Made by a program: the position numbers and the translations under genes
Notes under the pieces: model-generated
Seen by the model: the letters and a program-made list of their open reading frames with translations, nothing else
The model's database searches: none
Told to the model about the DNA's origin: nothing
Virus record (IMG/VR): IMGVR_UViG_3300032038_000283
Location: 1 to 37,695 of that record
DNA: 37,695 nt
Source of the DNA: a virus
Direction: 5' to 3' (one strand)
Shown: positions 13,626 to 27,864 of the stretch, piece after piece
Position numbering within the stretch: the stretch's first letter is position 1
How the letters are laid out: each line of letters opens with the position of its first letter

Positions 13626-14392
13626 CTCGGTTCAATTAAAATATACGGAATTGTGCGTTCATGGTAGTGGCTAATTGTAACTTTGTTTTGCCCTAATGAA
13701 AAAACAGGTGGTCTGTTAAAATTGAGAATTAAGTAATTGTATGGTTGTCCATCAATTGTAACATCTCCAGTTTTCGAATCATAAACAACCTCGGCATTCT
13801 CCCCAAAATTTGGACTTGCAGGGACTGAAAATGACTGCACATTGGAGCTGTTGTCTGTAAACGAGAAGTCAAGCTTATTAGCATGCAAATTAGCCCTTAC
13901 CGTTATTTTGGGATAACTCAAAAATCCTGTAGGATTCTGTAACACAAACTCCCTACCATTAGGCGAGTTGTTGACCTCGATGTCGTTGTCAATGTACCAA
14001 AATGGTTCCATATCAAATGTTACCTCGGCTTCAACAACTCCATCCATGTGGTTTTGCACATTTGCAACTTTTGAGCAAAAAGCCTCTGTGTACAGTCCTT
14101 GATTAAAGGTATCGGTAAATTTACAATATCCTGTTGCCGCGTTGAGCCAGTAATTTAGCTTATTGACTAACTCCCGATTTGAGCAGTGCACACGGGTCGG
14201 AAGGCTCATAATAGTATATGTTGCGGTTCGGTTCTTATACCTTCCGTTATAAGCGATAATATTGCCGTCTTTTCCTGCGATTTCCTCAGACGTATAGTCC
14301 TTTTCGGCGATGATATATTGCGGTTTCTTCTTGACGATAAATCCAAAATCTTCAAGGTGCTGACCATTAAAAGTAAAATAATTAAAACTCAT
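13610..14392 (-). CDS. distal tail protein (Dit, siphovirus tail component)
   Basis: MSFNYFTFNGQHLEDFGFIV is a typical N-terminus. A TAATG junction links it to the TMP stop. Confidence 0.8.
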   Translation of the reverse strand: MSFNYFTFNGQHLEDFGFIVKKKPQYIIAEKDYTSEEIAGKDGNIIAYNGRYKNRTATYTIMSLPTRVHCSNRELVNKLNYWLNAATGYCKFTDTFNQGLYTEAFCSKVANVQNHMDGVVEAEVTFDMEPFWYIDNDIEVNNSPNGREFVLQNPTGFLSYPKITVRANLHANKLDFSFTDNSSNVQSFSVPASPNFGENAEVVYDSKTGDVTIDGQPYNYLILNFNRPPVFSLGQNKVTISHYHERTIPYILIEPRWRML

Positions 14393-16222
14393 TAGCCCAC
14401 CGCCATTCCTTCCACTACAAGTTTTTCAGCGATTCGTTCGGATACTTTATTTGCGACATCCTCGATATCATCATCATTTTTAACATTGACATTATCGAGG
14501 TAAAGGTTAATGTTGACAATCTTTCCGTTTGCTGTGTTCGCCGTTTGCGAAAGGTTATTGCCTTCATAAAATGAGGTCAAGCCATCCGCAAATGCATGCG
14601 CAAACTTATATATCCACTGGTTGTTATTTTCAAGCGGTATAACAGCCTCTGCTCCTGCTTCGCCTGCGATAAATGGAGTACCACCTTCAACAAAACCGCC
14701 TTTAGCAAGCTTTGCTATCTTAGGAATATTTACTCCCCAAGTCTGACCGCCGACGAACGGTACCCAATCGGGTATATCGACTTTCAGCGAGTTCAATCCG
14801 TCTATAACGGCGTTAATACCGTCTATAATCCAGTTAATCGGGGTTTTGATACCGTTCCAGATATTCTGCCATAAATTCGAAAACCATTGTTTTATTCCGT
14901 TAAACGCGCCCTTGACACCATCGACCGCATTGCGGAATACGTTTGAGAAGAACTCACCAACTTTCGAGAAAACACCCGTAATAGAATTCCAGATGTTCTG
15001 GAAGAAACCTGTTATTTTTGTGTAAATTCCAAGAGCCCAATTTCTCAGCCCTTCGAAAATGCTTTTGAACCATGCAATTATTTTTGTATAAACTGATACA
15101 GCCCACATTTTGAGCTTTTCAAAAATGTCTTTGAACCAATCAACAATGCCTGAAAAGATTTCCGTTATCTTTTCCCAGGCACCACCGAAAATTTGTCCAA
15201 AGGCTTCAAAGATTTTCGGACCTGCTTCGACAAGAGCTTTCGCAACTGCTACGATAATCTTCGGAATAGCTTCAATCAGCCCCAAGATAATCTCCGGCAA
15301 ATGCGCGACAAGCTCAATGACTAGCATAATCAAGCCCTCAATGAGCTGAGGTATGCACTCAATAAGTCCTGTTATAATCTTTTCGATTATTGTAGGCAAG
15401 GCTTCAATAATGCCTAAAATAATCTTTGGTATAGCCTTTACAAGACCTAATACCAAAGAAATTACGCCGTCAATTAAAATCGGTAAATTCGTAATCAGCG
15501 CGTCAACTACTGAAATTATTATTTCGGGTAAACTATTGATAATCGGCTGAATGATTTTATCAATATTTTTCATCAGGTAAACCGCCATAGCTACAACCGC
15601 GCTGACGATTTGCGGAATTAAAGTTGGTAACGCTGATACAATAGCGTCAATAAGTTGTGGTAAGGCATCAACTATTGCTTTGAAAATAGATTGAAAAGCC
15701 TTGATAATATCAGGCATTAGATCCATTATTAGCTTCACAAGTTGAGGAAGAACGGAAACAAAAGCTTGCAAAAGGGCTTGTGCGCCTTTTACAATTTCAG
15801 GCAAAAGGGTATTTAGAACACCGGGCAAGGCTTCAATGATTTTGGGCGCAAGTTTTTGAATCAGCCCGGTGATGCCGTTCAAAATAACACTGATTCTTGG
15901 AATAATGTTTTCACCAACGGTCACAATACTGTTGACGAAATTATTGACCAGTTCGTCAAGATTTGCATTACCATCCGCAAGACCTGTTATCAGGTTTTGC
16001 CACGCTGATTTTGCTGACTGAATGGACCCCTGAATGGTGGCTGATGCTTCCTTTGCGGTTGTACCGGTGATGTCCATTTCTGTTTGTACAACATGGATTG
16101 CTTCTGCAATATCGGCAAAGGAAGAAATATCGTACTTCACGCCTGAGAGTTTTGTTGCGTCATCGAGAAGGCGTTGCATTTCTTCTTTGGTGCCACCATA
16201 GCCCAGCTTTAAATTGTCTAAC
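14392..16222 (-). CDS. tape measure protein, exon 2
   Basis: The frame is open from 16222: (M)LDNLKLGYGGTKEEMQRLLDDA... It contains a long LPxII/helical repeat region. Exon 2 is in frame with exon 1 after removing 16223-17067. Confidence 0.85.
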
Positions 16223-17067
16223 CAAATTTACACCCTCGGTTTCCCGATATTTATTAGGGGTTTAGACTATATCTTTATCCAGCCTGAAAATCCAGCCTTT
16301 TTTATTCCCTTTTTTGTATTCCCAACCATATTTTATTCCTGATTTAGAACATTTAAAATATTTGGCTGCTTCATTTCGGGAATTGAAATGCAGTATTTCT
16401 GTTCCTTTAATAGCTGTGATTTTCTTCTTTTTGTTTTCAATCCTCTTTTGGTATCCATAGGATAAAGCGTTTTCGGATACCGTTACCCACCGCAAGTTTT
16501 CTACCCTATTATCAGTCTTATCCCCGTTTATATGGTCTATTTGTGGTAGGTTGTTTGGATTGTTCAGAAATGCTATTGCGACAATTCTATGCACATATAA
16601 TGGTGTTGTTTTTCTTCCTAACATCACTTGCATATATCCGCTTGTTCCGCAATGCAATTTCAATATTCGCCCTGTTTTGTCATTGCGAATATTTCCCTCA
16701 TTGCTTACGGAATAGTTCGGCTTGGCAATTATCTTTCTCCACTCCACATCAACACGCCCTTTCGATTTGTATATACTTATTATATTACAAATTCGTTCTG
16801 CTGTCAATGTATAGTTAGTTTTGTTTGCTGGATAGTGCGCACTTCCAATGCCGTATCAATAGGCATTGTACTGAGTAACAAACTCATAGTCGTTTGACCT
16901 TCCCTTTCGGGCTTGGCACAGGATAGCCATGTGCTTTCGCATTTAGGTTTCCCCTGTTAGCAAGAACATCTCATACCACCATTTCCTGTGGTCTTTTTAC
17001 TCTCACACCTCTGATAGAGTTCACGCACATTCACTGCACAATCACTTATGCAGCGGACATTAGATTT
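16223..17067 (-). mobile_element. group I self-splicing intron (IA-like core) carrying an HNH homing endonuclease ORF
   Basis: The 5' splice site follows U17068 and the intron ends in G16223. An R-like element GGUCAAACGACUAUGA lies at 16884-16899. An S-like element AAGAUAUAGUCU lies at 16264-16275. P7 is GACUAU/AUAGUC and P4 is ACAGG/CCUGU. There are two GAAA tetraloops. Confidence 0.8.
16262..16807 (-). CDS. HNH homing endonuclease (NUMOD4-like N-terminus, HNH_3 core, C-terminal DNA-binding helix)
   Basis: VEWRKIIAKPNYSVSNEGNIRND; QIDHINGDKTDNRVENLRWVTVSEN; NSRNEAAKYF. The start is uncertain: TTG at 16807 or an internal GTG. Confidence 0.85.
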   Translation of the reverse strand: MTAERICNIISIYKSKGRVDVEWRKIIAKPNYSVSNEGNIRNDKTGRILKLHCGTSGYMQVMLGRKTTPLYVHRIVAIAFLNNPNNLPQIDHINGDKTDNRVENLRWVTVSENALSYGYQKRIENKKKKITAIKGTEILHFNSRNEAAKYFKCSKSGIKYGWEYKKGNKKGWIFRLDKDIV

Positions 17068-17384
17068 ATCGTATAATTTTGTTTTGCAAAGCCTTGATAA
17101 GCCGTTTGGATTGAAGAAACATCCGTGCCGAGCTTATTGGCATTGTCCGACATGTCGCGGATAGCCATATCAGCCTTTTCAGCAGCCTTTTGAGTATCGC
17201 CGCCTAATGACTGCAACAAAGAAGCTGAGAATCCTGTGACCGTTTCCATGTACTCATTTGCCGACATTCCTGCTGTTTCATATGCCTTTGACGCATTTTT
17301 AATTACAGACTGAGAAGAATTTTTAAACAGAGTTTCTACACCGCCTGCAAGCTGTTCATAATCTGAATAGCCTTTGACTGACAT
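17068..17384 (-). CDS. tape measure protein, exon 1. The first ATG is at 17384, but the frame is open and TMP-like up to 17576.
   Basis: ...DVSSIQTAYQGFAKQNYT, then the intron. The unspliced ORF terminates at 17046. Confidence 0.8.
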
Positions 17385-17572
17385 TGTAGCAAGCGCACCT
17401 ACTGCGGTTGAAGCCGCCCCAATTCCAACGGCAACAGCCTTGCCGACTTTTGCAAAGCCTGCGCCGATTCGTGAGCCTATGTTTGAACCTGATTTTTCCG
17501 CTTCGTTGAGCCCTCGCTCATATTGAGATTTATCAAGCGATAATGTAGCAGCTAAATCAAATACTCCTATTT

Positions 17573-22097: not shown

Positions 22098-23080
22098 GAT
22101 TTCACCTTGCTTTTTTGCTTGTGTTCATTTTTCCATTCATTGTATGATTGATTATCAAGTTTGTTTGCTCTTTCTTTTACGTCTGTAAAATCTTCGTTTT
22201 CATCAAAACTTGTCACAAGTGTGCAGCGGCAATTCCACACCTCCTCGGCTCTGCCGTCAGGGTCACCAGGATAACGCAAACCGTTTGAAAATTTAACCTG
22301 TTTGCCCTTGATTACTTTGACTTTTTCACCGTCCATATGCCTGTGGCTGCTTCGTGTTCTGCTATCAAGCGCCGCAAGCCATACTTGATATAATTCTATG
22401 CCCATATTTACGGCTCGCTGATAACTTTGCGTTCGCCCTGCGTTTTGTGCGCAAGTCGTCGAGGTCCTTGCATTGCGGATCGCGGCATTCATATCTTGCT
22501 GTGTAGCCCCAAGCGCAACCCTTTTCGCTAAATTATCAATGCTTTCGCCTTGCAAGATTCCTTGCGTTATGTGCGATTGGAACAGCTTTTTGTTCCACCG
22601 CTTATCAAGGTTTTTGTCAAGCGACGGGCGCTTTAAAATATCAGGGTCGTTTTTTATTAGATTGGCAACTGTATCTCGGTCATAAAGCGTATATGACGTG
22701 TTAATGCTTAATCCGGTCTCAATCTCAAACGTCCCGTAATTGTGATTAATGGCAAAGGTATGAAGCATTGAATCCCTGACTAAATCATTTGCCATTACAT
22801 TAACGTTTGTTAAATCTTCGGAAAGAGTATCACGCATAGCCTCCCAACGTTTGGCGTTCATTACTTTGCCTTGATACCATTTTTTAAACCTTTCTTCGGT
22901 TATCTCTCCGCTATCAAGTTTTTTTCGCCATTCCTTTTCTTGAACTTTAAATTTCTTTAGATAATCGTCAAGTTTTTTTTGGATTTCGTCCCGTGCCTGT
23001 TTATACGTTTTTTCCAGTTCCGCTTCAAGGCGCTTTAATTCTGCCTCAGTTTCAAGCTGTCCTGCATTCACGGTTATCAC
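22094..23080 (-). CDS. head morphogenesis protein (SPP1 gp7 / Mu F-like)
   Basis: DSRTRSSHRHMDGEKV...VWNCRCTLV. Confidence 0.85.
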   Translation of the reverse strand: MITVNAGQLETEAELKRLEAELEKTYKQARDEIQKKLDDYLKKFKVQEKEWRKKLDSGEITEERFKKWYQGKVMNAKRWEAMRDTLSEDLTNVNVMANDLVRDSMLHTFAINHNYGTFEIETGLSINTSYTLYDRDTVANLIKNDPDILKRPSLDKNLDKRWNKKLFQSHITQGILQGESIDNLAKRVALGATQQDMNAAIRNARTSTTCAQNAGRTQSYQRAVNMGIELYQVWLAALDSRTRSSHRHMDGEKVKVIKGKQVKFSNGLRYPGDPDGRAEEVWNCRCTLVTSFDENEDFTDVKERANKLDNQSYNEWKNEHKQKSKVKS

Positions 23081-24450
23081 TCCTCAGTAGTTGAGGTATC
23101 ATCATTCTTAAAGCGTTTTGCTTCATCTTCGGTCATTTTGTCGAGCACGGCGGAAACTCTATCGCCGTCGCCTAAAATTGTCATTATCTTCTCCGTCACG
23201 TAATCTTCACTGAGATATGTTGCGGCTGATACAATCGTCTGTATTTCCTCGGTTGTGTTCACGAGCTTAGACCGTGTAAAAGTAGCTGTATTTTCCGCCT
23301 GAGCGATTTTTAGGAGCTTATCAATAAAAGATAACACCTGATACTCTAACTGGTCGCAGAGGGACTCTAGAGGCTCGTATGCGGCTTTTATTTGCGTTGC
23401 CGTGATACTGCCGTTAGCTATGTTCGTTATATCAAGAGCCTGAGCGTCTCTGAACAAGTCTTTTTCAAGCCTGTTCAGCAATGCTTCTCTGCTTGAATAC
23501 GGTACTTCTACTGTATGGCTCTCAGCCTTTGCGCCATCGTCACATACATACGCCTTTACCGTTTTCATACGCTCCACAAACTGCGCAAGGTCTACATCAT
23601 CCATACCGCCCGCATTTTGGATTGTCCAGTAGATTTGAGAAGCGTCGTCAACGTCATTTGCAAAGCCTGATTTGATTAAATCATAGCAGTCAATCTGTTC
23701 TCGGAGCCCTACAAGTCTGCTTTGCTTGTATTCGTTGCCATACATCGGGATAATGGGAAAGCTTTCATAATTTTCGCCGTCATAGATTCTCAGCCCGTCT
23801 ACCTGCGACATTTTGTATTTAAGCTTGTATGCTCTTTTTTCCTGCAAGACTTTCGCCTGTGCGGTATCGCTTTTGTTATTCCAGATATAGTCCGTAAAGC
23901 CGTCAATCTCATACAGTGTAGCCCTGAGCGGCTTGTTCGGCGATACTTGCCAGAACCTTATACCAGCCATTAAAGCGCCGTTTTCTTCATCATACAACGG
24001 CACAAATTCTGTTGCTTTAAACACTTCCACATGGTCAAGATTGAAGAAGCCATAACCCACGCCGCCGACAAGTGCTGCTTTTGTTAGCTCTACAAGTTTG
24101 TGGTCAAAATCATTGCCTATTTTGCTTTCGACGTTTTCATTTTCCCAGCTTACGCCATTACCGAGTAGGAGCTGTATTTCCTGTTCAATAAATGTGTGGA
24201 AAAAGTTTGATTTAATCTTGAAGTTAGCGGAGAAATTATCCGGAACCGCTCTGCCGGATATCGTGTACAGCAGCTTTTGGAACTGTTCAATAGTCGCGTT
24301 TTTGAACTTGTCATACCTTTCAGCTGTTGCGGCTGTTCTATACCCGTCTGAGCTTTTGTACTCCGATATACAACCTCTTACAAACTGCATTCTGTTCGTT
24401 TCATTTTCGCCAATCTGCTTTAAATCCTGGTACGTTTTAATCGGAATCAC
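23077..24450 (-). CDS. portal protein (SPP1 gp6-like)
   Basis: 457 aa. The GTG start overlaps the GIY-YIG stop. The position is after the terminase genes. Confidence 0.85.
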   Translation of the reverse strand: MIPIKTYQDLKQIGENETNRMQFVRGCISEYKSSDGYRTAATAERYDKFKNATIEQFQKLLYTISGRAVPDNFSANFKIKSNFFHTFIEQEIQLLLGNGVSWENENVESKIGNDFDHKLVELTKAALVGGVGYGFFNLDHVEVFKATEFVPLYDEENGALMAGIRFWQVSPNKPLRATLYEIDGFTDYIWNNKSDTAQAKVLQEKRAYKLKYKMSQVDGLRIYDGENYESFPIIPMYGNEYKQSRLVGLREQIDCYDLIKSGFANDVDDASQIYWTIQNAGGMDDVDLAQFVERMKTVKAYVCDDGAKAESHTVEVPYSSREALLNRLEKDLFRDAQALDITNIANGSITATQIKAAYEPLESLCDQLEYQVLSFIDKLLKIAQAENTATFTRSKLVNTTEEIQTIVSAATYLSEDYVTEKIMTILGDGDRVSAVLDKMTEDEAKRFKNDDTSTTEE

Positions 24451-25031
24451 ATCCTTTCATATTTCCAGATAAAACCTCCTGCGGTTTTTCTGTTTCCGTT
24501 GCAAACTTGTCCAATATTTCCTTTGCTAATTTTTAATTCTTTTGCCGCAAGGCTCATGTATTCCCATTCTTTTATGAACTCGCCATCTTTTGTGTATTGA
24601 AACACTTTTTTTGCAAAATGATGTCTTACACCTTGTTTTGATTCGCTTATATGCTTTTTATGTGTTTCGGTAAATCCATTCTTTTTTCGTGCTTTGCTTA
24701 TTTTTTCTTTTGATTCTTTCGTGTGATGTTTTTTATACATTCCACCACCATCTCCACCAAGCGTTTCATTATACCCCTTTTGCGGATTTGTTGAATCATA
24801 CGCTTTTATCAACAAGCGTTCCAATTCGCAAGCATCTTTTCTCGATAAACATTTTGCAATTATTAAATGTTCAAAAGAATCCCATCCGTATTTTTTAATT
24901 GCTCTTCCAAAATGTTGTGCTCGATATGTGCTACCTCTGCCCCATCTGTCTTTTACATTTTGACAAGTTATTCCTATGTAAACTTTTCCGTTTATTTTAT
25001 TTGTGTGTTTGTAAACCGTATATTGTTTCAT
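24447..25031 (-). CDS. free-standing GIY-YIG homing endonuclease (I-TevI-like, NUMOD3/IENR1-type DNA-binding repeats)
   Basis: YTVYKHTNKINGKVYIGIT...R...H. The repeats are HTKESKEKIS, THKKHISESK and AAKELKISKGNIGQVCNG. The start at 25031 follows GGAGG. Confidence 0.85.
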   Translation of the reverse strand: MKQYTVYKHTNKINGKVYIGITCQNVKDRWGRGSTYRAQHFGRAIKKYGWDSFEHLIIAKCLSRKDACELERLLIKAYDSTNPQKGYNETLGGDGGGMYKKHHTKESKEKISKARKKNGFTETHKKHISESKQGVRHHFAKKVFQYTKDGEFIKEWEYMSLAAKELKISKGNIGQVCNGNRKTAGGFIWKYERM

Positions 25032-25051
25032 TGCGTTTTTCCTCCACACTT

Positions 25052-25080
25052 ATTATATCTCATTTTTGATATGTTTTCAA
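25052..25080 (-). promoter_or_regulatory. candidate promoter TTGAAA-17-TATAAT in front of the GIY-YIG gene
   Basis: The minus strand reads TTGAAA acatatcaaaaatgaga TATAAT. The -35 element overlaps the terL stop codon. Confidence 0.5.
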
Positions 25081-26318
25081 TACATCACCCCGAATATTGA
25101 TTTATAAACTGTTTTTTCTTTAACTATATGTTTTGTTTTTACGAAATAGCGCATGGAATCCATTTCGTGATCGTTTTCTTTTACTGGACGTTCTTCACCA
25201 ACGTTATTTTCATCCCATACGTAGCCGCTCGCTTCAAACTTCCAATTTACGCAATCTGGATTGATTTTTATTAGCCCTTGCTTTATTGCTGAGGCTGTTT
25301 CTCTTATGCCGTCAAGTACATCGTTGTCGCCTGACCTGCACTTGCACCACGGCTTTTTTCTCAACAGCGCAATAAACGACGCCGCCGACGGGTCTATGAT
25401 TGTTTCAATGCGTTTTCCTGTCGGCAACTTTGCTATAATATCTGCAAGCCATTCTTCAAGGTCTTTCCCGTATTCACTATCGGTTTTTGTCTTGCCTTTG
25501 TCTCTGCCGCTGTAGTAATATTCCCGTTCCGCATACCATACATCTTTTATCTTGACCCATAATAGCGCCGCAAAAGCATTTAATGTTCCGTAGTCTATTG
25601 ATACGCAGTAATCTTGTATTTCGCCGTCAACCTTTTCAAGTGCCTGCTCGTACATGGGATATATCAAGCCCTCAGCCTTAGCCCATTTGCCGAGAATATA
25701 CCGCAGGAAATATACCGTGCCTTTGTATTCATTTTCAAGAGCCTTGATGTACTCAGCAGGTAGGAAAGGATTGTCATAAAGCGTGTATGTTTGGCAATAA
25801 ATATCAATACCGTTTTCAGCGCTATCGATAAACTGCTTGACGTAATGCGTAGGATAAGACGGGTTCGCAGCGGCATGACATACAGAATACGGCAAACTCA
25901 ATCTTGATTTTAAAATCTCGAATACTTCTTTGTGGATATCGCAGATTTCGTCACAATAGCAGAACTTTACCTCCGAACCTCTGAGCTTTGCAACCGCTCC
26001 GACATTATTTGCGCCAAGGCAATAAACTTCTTCACCAAATATGCGACATATAGAGCGGCTGTTAATGCTTGTAATATACGTATCGCCCCAAATCATACGC
26101 ATTGGTGTCAAAACGTTGCGTTCAATGTTTTCACGGCTTGCACCGAGAATGAGATTTATTCCCTTTTTGCCTTTGCGCTCTAAAACACATTGAGGAATAA
26201 CATACTGAATAGCTATGTGTGATTTACCCGAACGCACCGCACCGACCGCAAAATTCCACCGCTTATTTGCATTGCGGATATATTCGGCTTGCTTTTCTGT
26301 TATTTGTATCTCATTCAT
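25077..26318 (-). CDS. terL: terminase large subunit
   Basis: Walker A motif GAVRSGKS. The C-terminal nuclease motif is NDHEMDSMRYF. Confidence 0.9.
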   Translation of the reverse strand: MNEIQITEKQAEYIRNANKRWNFAVGAVRSGKSHIAIQYVIPQCVLERKGKKGINLILGASRENIERNVLTPMRMIWGDTYITSINSRSICRIFGEEVYCLGANNVGAVAKLRGSEVKFCYCDEICDIHKEVFEILKSRLSLPYSVCHAAANPSYPTHYVKQFIDSAENGIDIYCQTYTLYDNPFLPAEYIKALENEYKGTVYFLRYILGKWAKAEGLIYPMYEQALEKVDGEIQDYCVSIDYGTLNAFAALLWVKIKDVWYAEREYYYSGRDKGKTKTDSEYGKDLEEWLADIIAKLPTGKRIETIIDPSAASFIALLRKKPWCKCRSGDNDVLDGIRETASAIKQGLIKINPDCVNWKFEASGYVWDENNVGEERPVKENDHEMDSMRYFVKTKHIVKEKTVYKSIFGVMY

Positions 26319-26694: not shown

Positions 26695-27864
26695 TCAGTT
26701 TACTTTTACTGCCGCTTTCCCTGTAAAGTTTTCATATCTCGAAATAATTACGTCGCAATAGTGTTCGTCTAACTCACACATATAGCATTTTCTGTTTAAC
26801 TGTTCACAGGCTATTAGTGTGCTACCACTACCACCGAATAAATCAAGCACCACGCTATTTTCTTTGCTGCTATGTGAAATAGCCATTGCAGGGACTTCAA
26901 CAGGCTTTTCTGTCGGATGCCCTGTTTTTCCGTTTATTTTATTGATTGTCCATGTTGATAACGCATGTCCTTCTTTTGGGAAGTTAAATGTGTGTTTTCC
27001 TCTTGTTGCATAACAAACAATCTCTGTGTTCCATGTCCAATGTCTTTTCATCAAACTCGGCATCGGATTTGGTTTGCTCCATATACAGTAAGAAAAATGG
27101 TCTGCCCACGTTTTCATCCACGTCCAAATTTCACCTGCAAGAAAATGTGATGTGCATATATAAACAGTGCAATCATTTTTTATAGTCTGTAATATAGATT
27201 CAAAAATATCTGATATCACAAAATCCTTATCCCATTCTGTTTTTGCAAGTTCTCTCATGCGTGGAGAATTGCTATCCTTTGTAACATTCTTGCTATCACT
27301 TGCAATATTATATGGCGGGTCAGTGAACACCATATCAGCCTTTACCCCGTCCATAAGCCTGTCAATAACCGCAGGGTCGGTGGAGTCACCGCAAATTAAA
27401 AAATGCTCTCCAAGTTGCCATATATTGCCCAACTTGCACCGTGTTTCAACTTCTTCGGGGATTTCATCTTCTTCGATTTCCTGCGGTTCGTTATCATCAA
27501 GATTTAACTCAAACCCAAACTCCGACATATCAATATCAAAAATACCGTCAAGCTCTTCGCCAAGCAAATCAAAGTCCCACTCTGCAAGCTCGCCGACCTT
27601 GTTGTCGGCAAGCCTGAACGCTTTAACTTGTTCCTCGGTCAAATCATCTGCAATAACGCAAGGGAGCTTTTCAAGCCCTAATTCCTGAGCCGCCTTATAT
27701 CTCGTGTGACCTGCTACAATCACACCGTCTTTGTCAATGACAATCGGCACCTTGAATCCAAATTCTTTAATGCTGTTTGCAACGTACTCAACAGCCTCAT
27801 CGTTTTTCCTCGGGTTCTTTTCGTATGGCGTTATTTCTGTTATGCTTTTCTCAATTATCTGCAT
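26695..27864 (-). CDS. ParB-like nuclease domain fused to a DNA methyltransferase (DPPY ... FGGSGST; N6A/N4C beta class)
   Basis: The N-terminus is YEKNPRKNDEAVEYVANSIKEFGF...AGHTRYKAA. The C-terminus has FTDPPY and DLFGGSGSTLIA. Confidence 0.85.
   Translation of the reverse strand: MQIIEKSITEITPYEKNPRKNDEAVEYVANSIKEFGFKVPIVIDKDGVIVAGHTRYKAAQELGLEKLPCVIADDLTEEQVKAFRLADNKVGELAEWDFDLLGEELDGIFDIDMSEFGFELNLDDNEPQEIEEDEIPEEVETRCKLGNIWQLGEHFLICGDSTDPAVIDRLMDGVKADMVFTDPPYNIASDSKNVTKDSNSPRMRELAKTEWDKDFVISDIFESILQTIKNDCTVYICTSHFLAGEIWTWMKTWADHFSYCIWSKPNPMPSLMKRHWTWNTEIVCYATRGKHTFNFPKEGHALSTWTINKINGKTGHPTEKPVEVPAMAISHSSKENSVVLDLFGGSGSTLIACEQLNRKCYMCELDEHYCDVIISRYENFTGKAAVKVN

Follow-up and report, generated by a model that had tools for sequence, protein, structure and literature searches.

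The window analysed here, a viral sequence of 37,695 nucleotides (nt) corresponding to positions 1–37,695 of the IMG/VR record IMGVR_UViG_3300032038_000283, carries on its minus strand a tape measure protein (TMP) gene that is interrupted by an 845-nt insert containing an HNH endonuclease gene. This arrangement raises the question of what the insert is and whether the interrupted gene encodes one protein or two. The anatomy of the insert, the covariation of its RNA fold, the exact restoration of the intron-less sequence upon its removal and the homology of its endonuclease lead us to conclude with high confidence that it is a group I intron which is capable of splicing and encodes an HNH homing endonuclease. 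The exons, the intron and all of their elements described below lie on the minus strand, and coordinates are given in descending order where the direction of reading matters.

The interrupted tape measure gene and its junction

Exon 1 of the TMP gene (positions 17068–17570) lies in a frame that is open from 17572, runs to a terminal ...AYQGFAKQNYTINLMSAA and then meets TAA at 17048–17046, and exon 2 (14392–16222) lies in a frame that is open directly after TAA at 16230–16228. The 845-nt insert between them (17067–16223) is preceded by U17068 and has G16223 as its final base. Joining U17068 to G16222 generates a single open reading frame (ORF) reading QNYTMLDNLKLGYGGTKEEMQRLL (317 + 1831 nt = 716 codons), with a predicted ligated-exon junction of ...CAAAATTATACGAT/GTTAGACAATTTAAAG (slashes mark the boundaries of the insert throughout). 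These boundaries fall within a codon (ACG AU/G UUA GAC). The stop at 17046, the second TMP-like frame opening at 16222, the in-frame join and the U and G that delimit the insert had all been reported in a preliminary description of this locus and were re-derived here from the minus-strand read. Both exon products match the same TMP family of the PHROG database at successive positions (phrog_3981, positions 40–168 and then 179–458), and exon 1 additionally matches phrog_6900.

When the spliced N-terminal region was compared with annotated phages by tblastn, many TMPs spanned the junction in one aligned piece, the intact homologues being 59–71% identical. The sequence GFAKQNYTMLDNLKLGYGGT was found across the site in all four intron-less TMP loci that were read directly, namely those of Flavonifractor phage Chenonceau, an Acutalibacteraceae phage, a Ruminococcus phage and Lactococcus phage phismq86, all of which read GFAKQNYT-M-LDNLKLGYGGT. 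The predicted splice product is the same as these homologues, residue for residue, across the junction, which is the outcome expected when this alignment was first proposed as a check on the intron. An in-frame junction one base to the right (A17067/...G16222, giving NYT-I-LDN) was also considered and rejected; all of the intron-less homologues have M at this position, and the 5' splice site would follow an A.

The joined frame of 716 codons stands as originally reported, but the 715 amino acids (aa) given for the whole TMP do not, as the frame is open upstream of ATG 17384 to ~17570. No ATG, GTG or TTG is present at the conserved TMP N-terminus in the window. The position three codons before F-D-L, where relatives have GTG or ATG, is occupied by ATA (17570–17568), which lies behind AGGCAGGTGA, and the same start position is occupied by ATT in phage Chenonceau and by ATA in one further relative (L112). 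The TMP thus probably starts at this non-canonical ATA and would then comprise ~777 aa.

Three other classes of element (inteins, group II introns and translational bypass elements) were also considered, but nothing speaks for them beyond the insertion at a conserved site with an HNH gene. An intein is excluded by the stop that the exon frame meets seven codons inside the insert and by the separate start and promoter of the HNH ORF. Neither a reverse transcriptase ORF nor a group II match in Rfam was found, and 845 nt is far above the known bypass gaps. The probability assigned to this set of explanations is negligible.

A free-standing HNH gene could, on the other hand, have split the TMP gene into two separately translated, functional polypeptides without any RNA splicing. 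The records of related phages (Lactococcus) do annotate two ‘tape measure protein’ coding sequences together with an HNH gene, and phrog_6900 (235 aa) seems to be made of exon-1 products: the exon-1 product of the window (17049–17570) matches this family, which has 235 positions and is annotated as ‘tail length tape measure protein’, with E = 1e-64. We consider it probable that phrog_6900 consists of exon-1 fragments of intron-split TMP genes that were annotated as separate proteins. At 16222, exon 2 shows neither a start codon nor a ribosome-binding site, its first ATG lying 14 codons in (16179), and removal of an insert bounded inside a codon restores the intron-less sequence to the nucleotide. 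Furthermore, the non-coding sequences on either side of the HNH gene fold into a ribozyme structure that is conserved and covaries, and they are kept in ORF-less copies that have no endonuclease gene at all, as described below. Separate translation of two TMP polypeptides is therefore regarded as extremely improbable.

Ribozyme fold and splice sites

Relatives of the intron were collected using a DNA pattern of the ribozyme core (GTCAAACGACTAT N30-50 GGAAGTG), which was found in ~100 viral contigs. A locus search by HNH protein returned mostly unrelated HNH genes and only one close locus (L010), the core pattern being far more productive. In total, 64 copies (including the window and three GenBank phages) are inserted at the same nucleotide (ACGAT/...G/GTTrGAyAA), and 16 of them contain no ORF. 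A structure model of 80 pairs in 17 helices was drawn on the window and tested on an alignment of 12 dereplicated, ORF-deleted copies. In the window, each of the 80 pairs is canonical, and 98.3% of the cells are paired in the 12 sequences, compared with 32–41% when the partners were slid by 1–3 columns. Changes on both sides were found in 44 of the 80 pairs, and the observed values were reached by none of 500 shuffles. The covarying helices are P2, P3, P4, P5, P5a, P6, P6a, P7.1, P7.2, P8 and the P9 hairpin. The minimum-free-energy fold of the ORF-deleted window intron (z = -5.2, equalled by 0 of 100 shuffles) recovers most of the helices without comparative input.

The P2 hairpin (17034–17053; CUGCA/UGCAG), in which four of five pairs show both-sided changes, holds the in-frame stop of exon 1 (UAA, 17048–17046) in its loop, and this stop is conserved in relatives. 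P3 is formed by GUGCGU (17028–17023) and GCGCAC (16840–16835), with 100% pairing and both-sided changes in three of six pairs. The strand immediately 5' of J3/4 was also considered for P3 but rejected, as it covaries with 17006–17000 in the stem of the P3.2 hairpin described below, and GUGCGU/GCGCAC covaries as P3. The P4-P5-P5a-P6-P6a domain (16897–16957; helices 7–11) coincides with a partial match to the Rfam model and contains P4 (ACAGG, 16957–16953, with CCUGU, 16922–16918) as well as two GAAA tetraloop hairpins (GCGAAAGC, 16940–16933, and CCCGAAAGGG, 16911–16902). P7 is formed by GACUAU (16891–16886), which lies inside the R-like element GGUCAAACGACUAUGA (16899–16884), and AUAGUC (16270–16265), which lies inside the S element AAGAUAUAGUCU (16275–16264); it is the same in all copies, fits the Rfam consensus and makes up the P3/P7 pseudoknot together with P3. 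P7.1 (16885–16873) and P7.2 (16867–16847), which are IA2-type peripheral hairpins within 16847–16885, both covary (helices 13 and 14). The P8 element (16276–16834) has a stem of UAUCCAGC (16834–16827) and GCUGGAUA (16283–16276), with both-sided changes in seven of eight pairs, and a loop of 543 nt that contains the HNH gene and its promoter. The sequence GGCUGGAU of the P8 3' strand occurs twice, 14 nt apart (16297–16290 and 16284–16277), both within the end of the HNH ORF, and an alternative register of P8 is thus possible. P9 (CCC/GGG) encloses a UCGG-GAAA-CCGA hairpin and is followed by the 3' tail to omega-G16223 (16223–16260; helices 16 and 17).

The conserved core of group I introns, comprising the P3-P8 and P4-P6 domains with the P3/P7 pseudoknot, is therefore present, and the presence of P7.1 and P7.2 between the 5' strand of P7 and the 3' strand of P3 suggests that the intron is IA2-like. 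The R, S, P7 and P4 elements and the GAAA hairpins were all found where the preliminary description had placed them, and the two hairpins following the P7 5' strand that it had likened to P7.1/P7.2 (16885–16873 and 16868–16846) are present and covary in relatives.

The pairing of the 5' splice site with its internal guide, which could not be discerned by eye earlier, was placed as follows. P1 (17054–17071) consists of a 5' strand at 17071–17067 (CGAU/A) and a guide strand at 17059–17054 (UGUC[C]G), in which U17068, the last base of exon 1, forms the splice-site wobble U.G with G17058. P1 is invariant in the 12-sequence alignment except that its top pair (the first intron base with the base 5' of the guide G) covaries, being A-U in 75, U-A in 7, G-C in 1 and G.U in 1 of 84 copies. 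An alternative P1, pairing exon UACGAU with AUUGUG (17041–17036), was rejected because it would place A-U, not U.G, next to the cleavage point, is disrupted in relatives (AUUAUG) and falls within the loop of P2. The 5' part of the guide sequence (UCUAAU, 17059–17064) can pair with the start of exon 2 (GUUAGA, 16222–16217) to form P10 of 5–6 bp, the inner five pairs of which are 100% paired in the 12 sequences, compared with 8–50% for slid partners. The equivalent of G16223 is the last base in 64 of 64 copies, although the extraction pattern itself required this G.

Several points weigh against the conclusion that this copy splices. No match to Rfam was obtained for the whole window at the curated gathering score, which is 50 bits for the Intron_gpI model (RF00028). 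The search with this model that had been suggested earlier as a check therefore formally failed for the window itself: in a permissive search of the narrow region, two partial matches on the minus strand flank the ORF, at 16957–16887 (18.3 bits; P4-P6 and the P7 5' strand) and 16369–16242 (21.9 bits; the P7 3' strand, AAGAUAUAGUCU and P9). An ORF-less relative at the same site (L153:8895-9199), whose ribozyme parts share ~75% identity with those of the window, exceeds the cutoff and matches the model end to end with 54.7 bits. The window falls below the cutoff because of the 543-nt P8 loop and of a further insertion, formed by the hairpins P3.1 and P3.2. In addition, P1 has only 4–5 pairs and a bulged C, the changes in P10 are one-sided only, and P7, P9 and P1 apart from its top pair never vary and so lack covariation support; covariation speaks neither for nor against these invariant parts. 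Searches of Pfam and NCBIfam with the spliced TMP yielded no TMP-domain match across the junction and hence no confirmation at the domain level. Finally, self-splicing is predicted from sequence data.

These points could be taken to indicate that the core is intron-derived but that this copy no longer splices, the TMP gene being a pseudogene in a decaying prophage. The low Rfam scores, which concern the window alone, and the TMP without a canonical start codon would both agree with such decay. However, all modelled pairs are canonical in the window, the invariant bases of P7, the J regions and the S element are intact, and the reading frames of the two exons, of the HNH gene and of the adjacent structural genes are open over their full length, while the ATA/ATT start position is common to relatives. 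A dead copy is accordingly considered highly improbable. The proposal of a group I intron with an HNH endonuclease splitting the TMP gene is instead supported by the canonical pairing, the covariation, the homology to I-HmuI (see the next section) and the restored junction.

Splicing of the intron would proceed as follows. Transcription of the TMP gene would run through the intron, and ribosomes on exon 1 would halt at the UAA in the P2 loop. The RNA would fold into the P1-P9 core, and an external guanosine bound in P7 would attack after U17068, held in P1 by its wobble with G17058. P10 would align exon 2 by means of the guide sequence, and the free 3'-OH of U17068 would then attack after omega-G16223. 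The predicted ligation product is ...ACG AU/G UUA GAC..., encoding a single TMP of ~777 aa that reads ...QNYTMLDNLKLGYGG....

The fold also contains two extra hairpins that we provisionally call P3.1 (17019–17009) and P3.2 (17006–16960; together 16960–17019). All of their helices (4–6) covary. Within P3.2, an inner stem, a loop with the conserved sequence AGGAAAUG and a bulge of UGAGAU can be distinguished. Both hairpins are located between P3 and J3/4, and the alignment of the ORF-less relative shows that the Rfam model handles this region as an insertion. Such hairpins are not known to be part of the IA2 definition of the Michel-Westhof classification. In the ribozyme of the Staphylococcus phage Twort, P3 adjoins J3/4 directly, and the intron of the window thus differs from the Twort ribozyme by two extra hairpins. 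A literature search for elements under the names P3.1/P3.2, and for insertions said to lie ‘between P3 and P4’, returned nothing relevant, which is no proof of novelty. It is conceivable, though rather unlikely, that P3.1/P3.2 represent an undescribed peripheral domain that defines an IA2-like phage intron subclass specialised on a TMP hot spot. If so, this hot spot would often host two different introns 22 nt apart, raising questions about the recognition of the mini-exon between them, exon skipping and the mobilisation of both introns by one endonuclease. Hairpins of the P3.1/P3.2 type were also observed in one relative outside TMP genes (L156).

The endonuclease and the distribution of the intron

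The gene in the P8 loop (16262–16747) encodes a 161-aa HNH homing endonuclease with NUMOD4 (5e-9), HNH_3 (1e-11) and NUMOD1 (1e-3) domains in Pfam and a match to phrog_59 (5e-40). The protein matches I-HmuI (PDB 1U3E) with E = 4e-12 and keeps its DH...N...NLRWVT motif. GTG 16747, which lies behind AAAGGG, is likely to be the start codon because the alignment with I-HmuI begins at residue 1 (MEWRKI and MEWKDI in the window protein and I-HmuI, respectively). The final codons of the gene overlap the 3' strands of P8 and P7, including the S element, and the placement of the HNH ORF in a peripheral loop with its last codons over S, as originally described, was thereby borne out. Upstream of the gene, also in the P8 loop, a promoter scan identified a sigma-70 consensus promoter (TTGACA-17 nt-TATAAT, 16779–16807) with 12 of 12 consensus matches, and the TTG at 16807, which is the start of the ORF as called mechanically, coincides with the -35 box of this promoter. 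The gene may thus be expressed from its own promoter and its product may be active as an endonuclease. In several relatives, a TTGAC...TATAAT element is located in an extended P6 loop instead.

By analogy with I-HmuI, the separately promoted enzyme would nick or cut intron-less TMP alleles near the conserved site in a co-infection or a lysogen, and repair would copy the intron into the cut allele (homing). The inserts in P8 at this site vary among several lengths, the P8 region of the ORF-less relatives being 17–48 nt long, and ORF-less and ORF-bearing copies coexist. This mixture fits the usual gain-and-loss cycle of homing-endonuclease genes.

The nearest introns that were fetched are ~72–82% identical to the window intron, and none of the relatives is close to the whole window. 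The core was also found in metagenome-assembled genomes of Oscillospiraceae, Gemmiger, Faecalibacterium, Lachnospira, Bacilli, Collinsella and Saccharibacteria, and in a collection with one genome per species it was found in no Bacillus cereus-group genome. Inserts in 265 phage records are 87–99% identical, over ~60 nt, to the segment from the P7 3' strand to P9. The matching segments are the 3' ends of inserts that interrupt terminase genes, such as that of Enterococcus phage EH93P1, and other genes in many phages of Gram-positive bacteria.

Relatives have a different, second site for a group I intron, located 22 nt downstream (after ...LDNLKLG). Of the 64 same-site relatives, 20 carry introns at both sites with a mini-exon of 22 nt between them, and this tandem type accounts for 13 of the 16 first-site introns that lack an ORF. 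Examples are Javan271 (L002, 2585-3830) and L153 (8895-9463), both introns of the latter exceeding the Rfam cutoff. Only the second site is occupied in Lactococcus phage 28201 and only the first in the window. A further, unrelated group I intron with its own endonuclease (Rfam, 82 bits) lies upstream in the same TMP gene of Str-PAP-1 (L003, 1458-1744), which therefore contains at least two introns in one TMP gene.

Known introns, gene annotation and genomic context

Group I introns in TMP genes have been known since 2008, and the earlier remark that introns are uncommon in such genes was thus only partly right, the present intron family being widespread. For prophages of the B. cereus group, Tourasse and Kolsto (2008, PMC2504315) reported three sites in TMP genes that are occupied by group I introns, which belong to classes IA1 and IA2. 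Among these introns, TMP-IVS3a carries a gene for an H-N-H endonuclease, and Lactobacillus phage JCL1032 is listed in the same paper as having a TMP intron. The introns TMP-IVS1, -IVS2, -IVS3a and -IVS3b resemble the intron of the window in their prophage TMP host gene, their IA1/IA2 class and their site-adapted P1/P10, and they resemble its family in the coexistence of ORF-less and endonuclease gene-bearing versions and in the presence of several sites per gene. They differ in their hosts and in the TMP family concerned.

Closer counterparts are found in Lactococcus phage 38502 (KX160204) and the Streptococcus phages Str-PAP-1 (KP208803) and Javan271 (MK448723), which share the same insertion nucleotide (ACGAT/...G/GTT) and have an HNH gene in P8. 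The inserts of 38502 and Str-PAP-1 are homologous to that of the window, with 67–68% identity over the whole insert, although the ribozyme parts of all three are only ~57–63% identical. The GenBank records treat the pieces as separate TMP genes, and only the HNH gene of Javan271 is noted as ‘Phage intron’. The intron of Bacillus phage SPO1 is likewise a group I intron of a phage of Gram-positive bacteria that encodes an HNH/NUMOD endonuclease (I-HmuI), but it resides in a DNA polymerase gene and the two endonucleases are only modestly similar. I-HmuI is known to nick DNA and its target has been established, and both properties are extrapolated to the enzyme of the window. The orf142 ribozyme of phage Twort has an IA2 layout with P7.1/P7.2, and this layout is common to the window, Twort orf142 and the related introns of Staphylococcus, Listeria and Enterococcus phages.

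These comparisons suggest that the locus should be annotated as one spliced TMP gene (~777 aa) and an intron-encoded HNH gene rather than as two TMP fragments. The length of the TMP sets tail length, and the fragmented annotation would therefore mislead tail-length prediction. The same misannotation occurs in several GenBank phage records and apparently also in a PHROG family built from exon-1 fragments. The window adds a well-resolved, covariation-supported example of mobile introns targeting the most conserved stretch of a structural phage gene, from an intron family that is widespread in phages of gut Firmicutes, and leaves general knowledge of group I introns unchanged.

The interrupted gene is identified as a TMP gene by its homology and by its position between the tail chaperone genes and the Dit/Tal genes, the genes around it encoding the major tail protein, Dit and Tal and including two ORFs of chaperone size. 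The window probably represents a siphovirus-type phage or prophage of a Gram-positive host of the gut Clostridia. A split terminase gene was also suspected in the window and rejected: the small (TerS) and large (TerL) terminase genes both have their full length, and what separates TerL from the portal gene is a second homing-endonuclease gene, which is free-standing. This gene (24447–25049, minus strand; phrog_314, E = 1e-39, with weaker matches to GIY-YIG-type families) lies between the large terminase (25077–26318) and portal (23077–24450) genes, neither of which appears to be split. A gene for a fused ParB-like nuclease/DNA methyltransferase (26695–27864, minus strand; phrog_498, E = 1e-112) is located just upstream of the small terminase gene.

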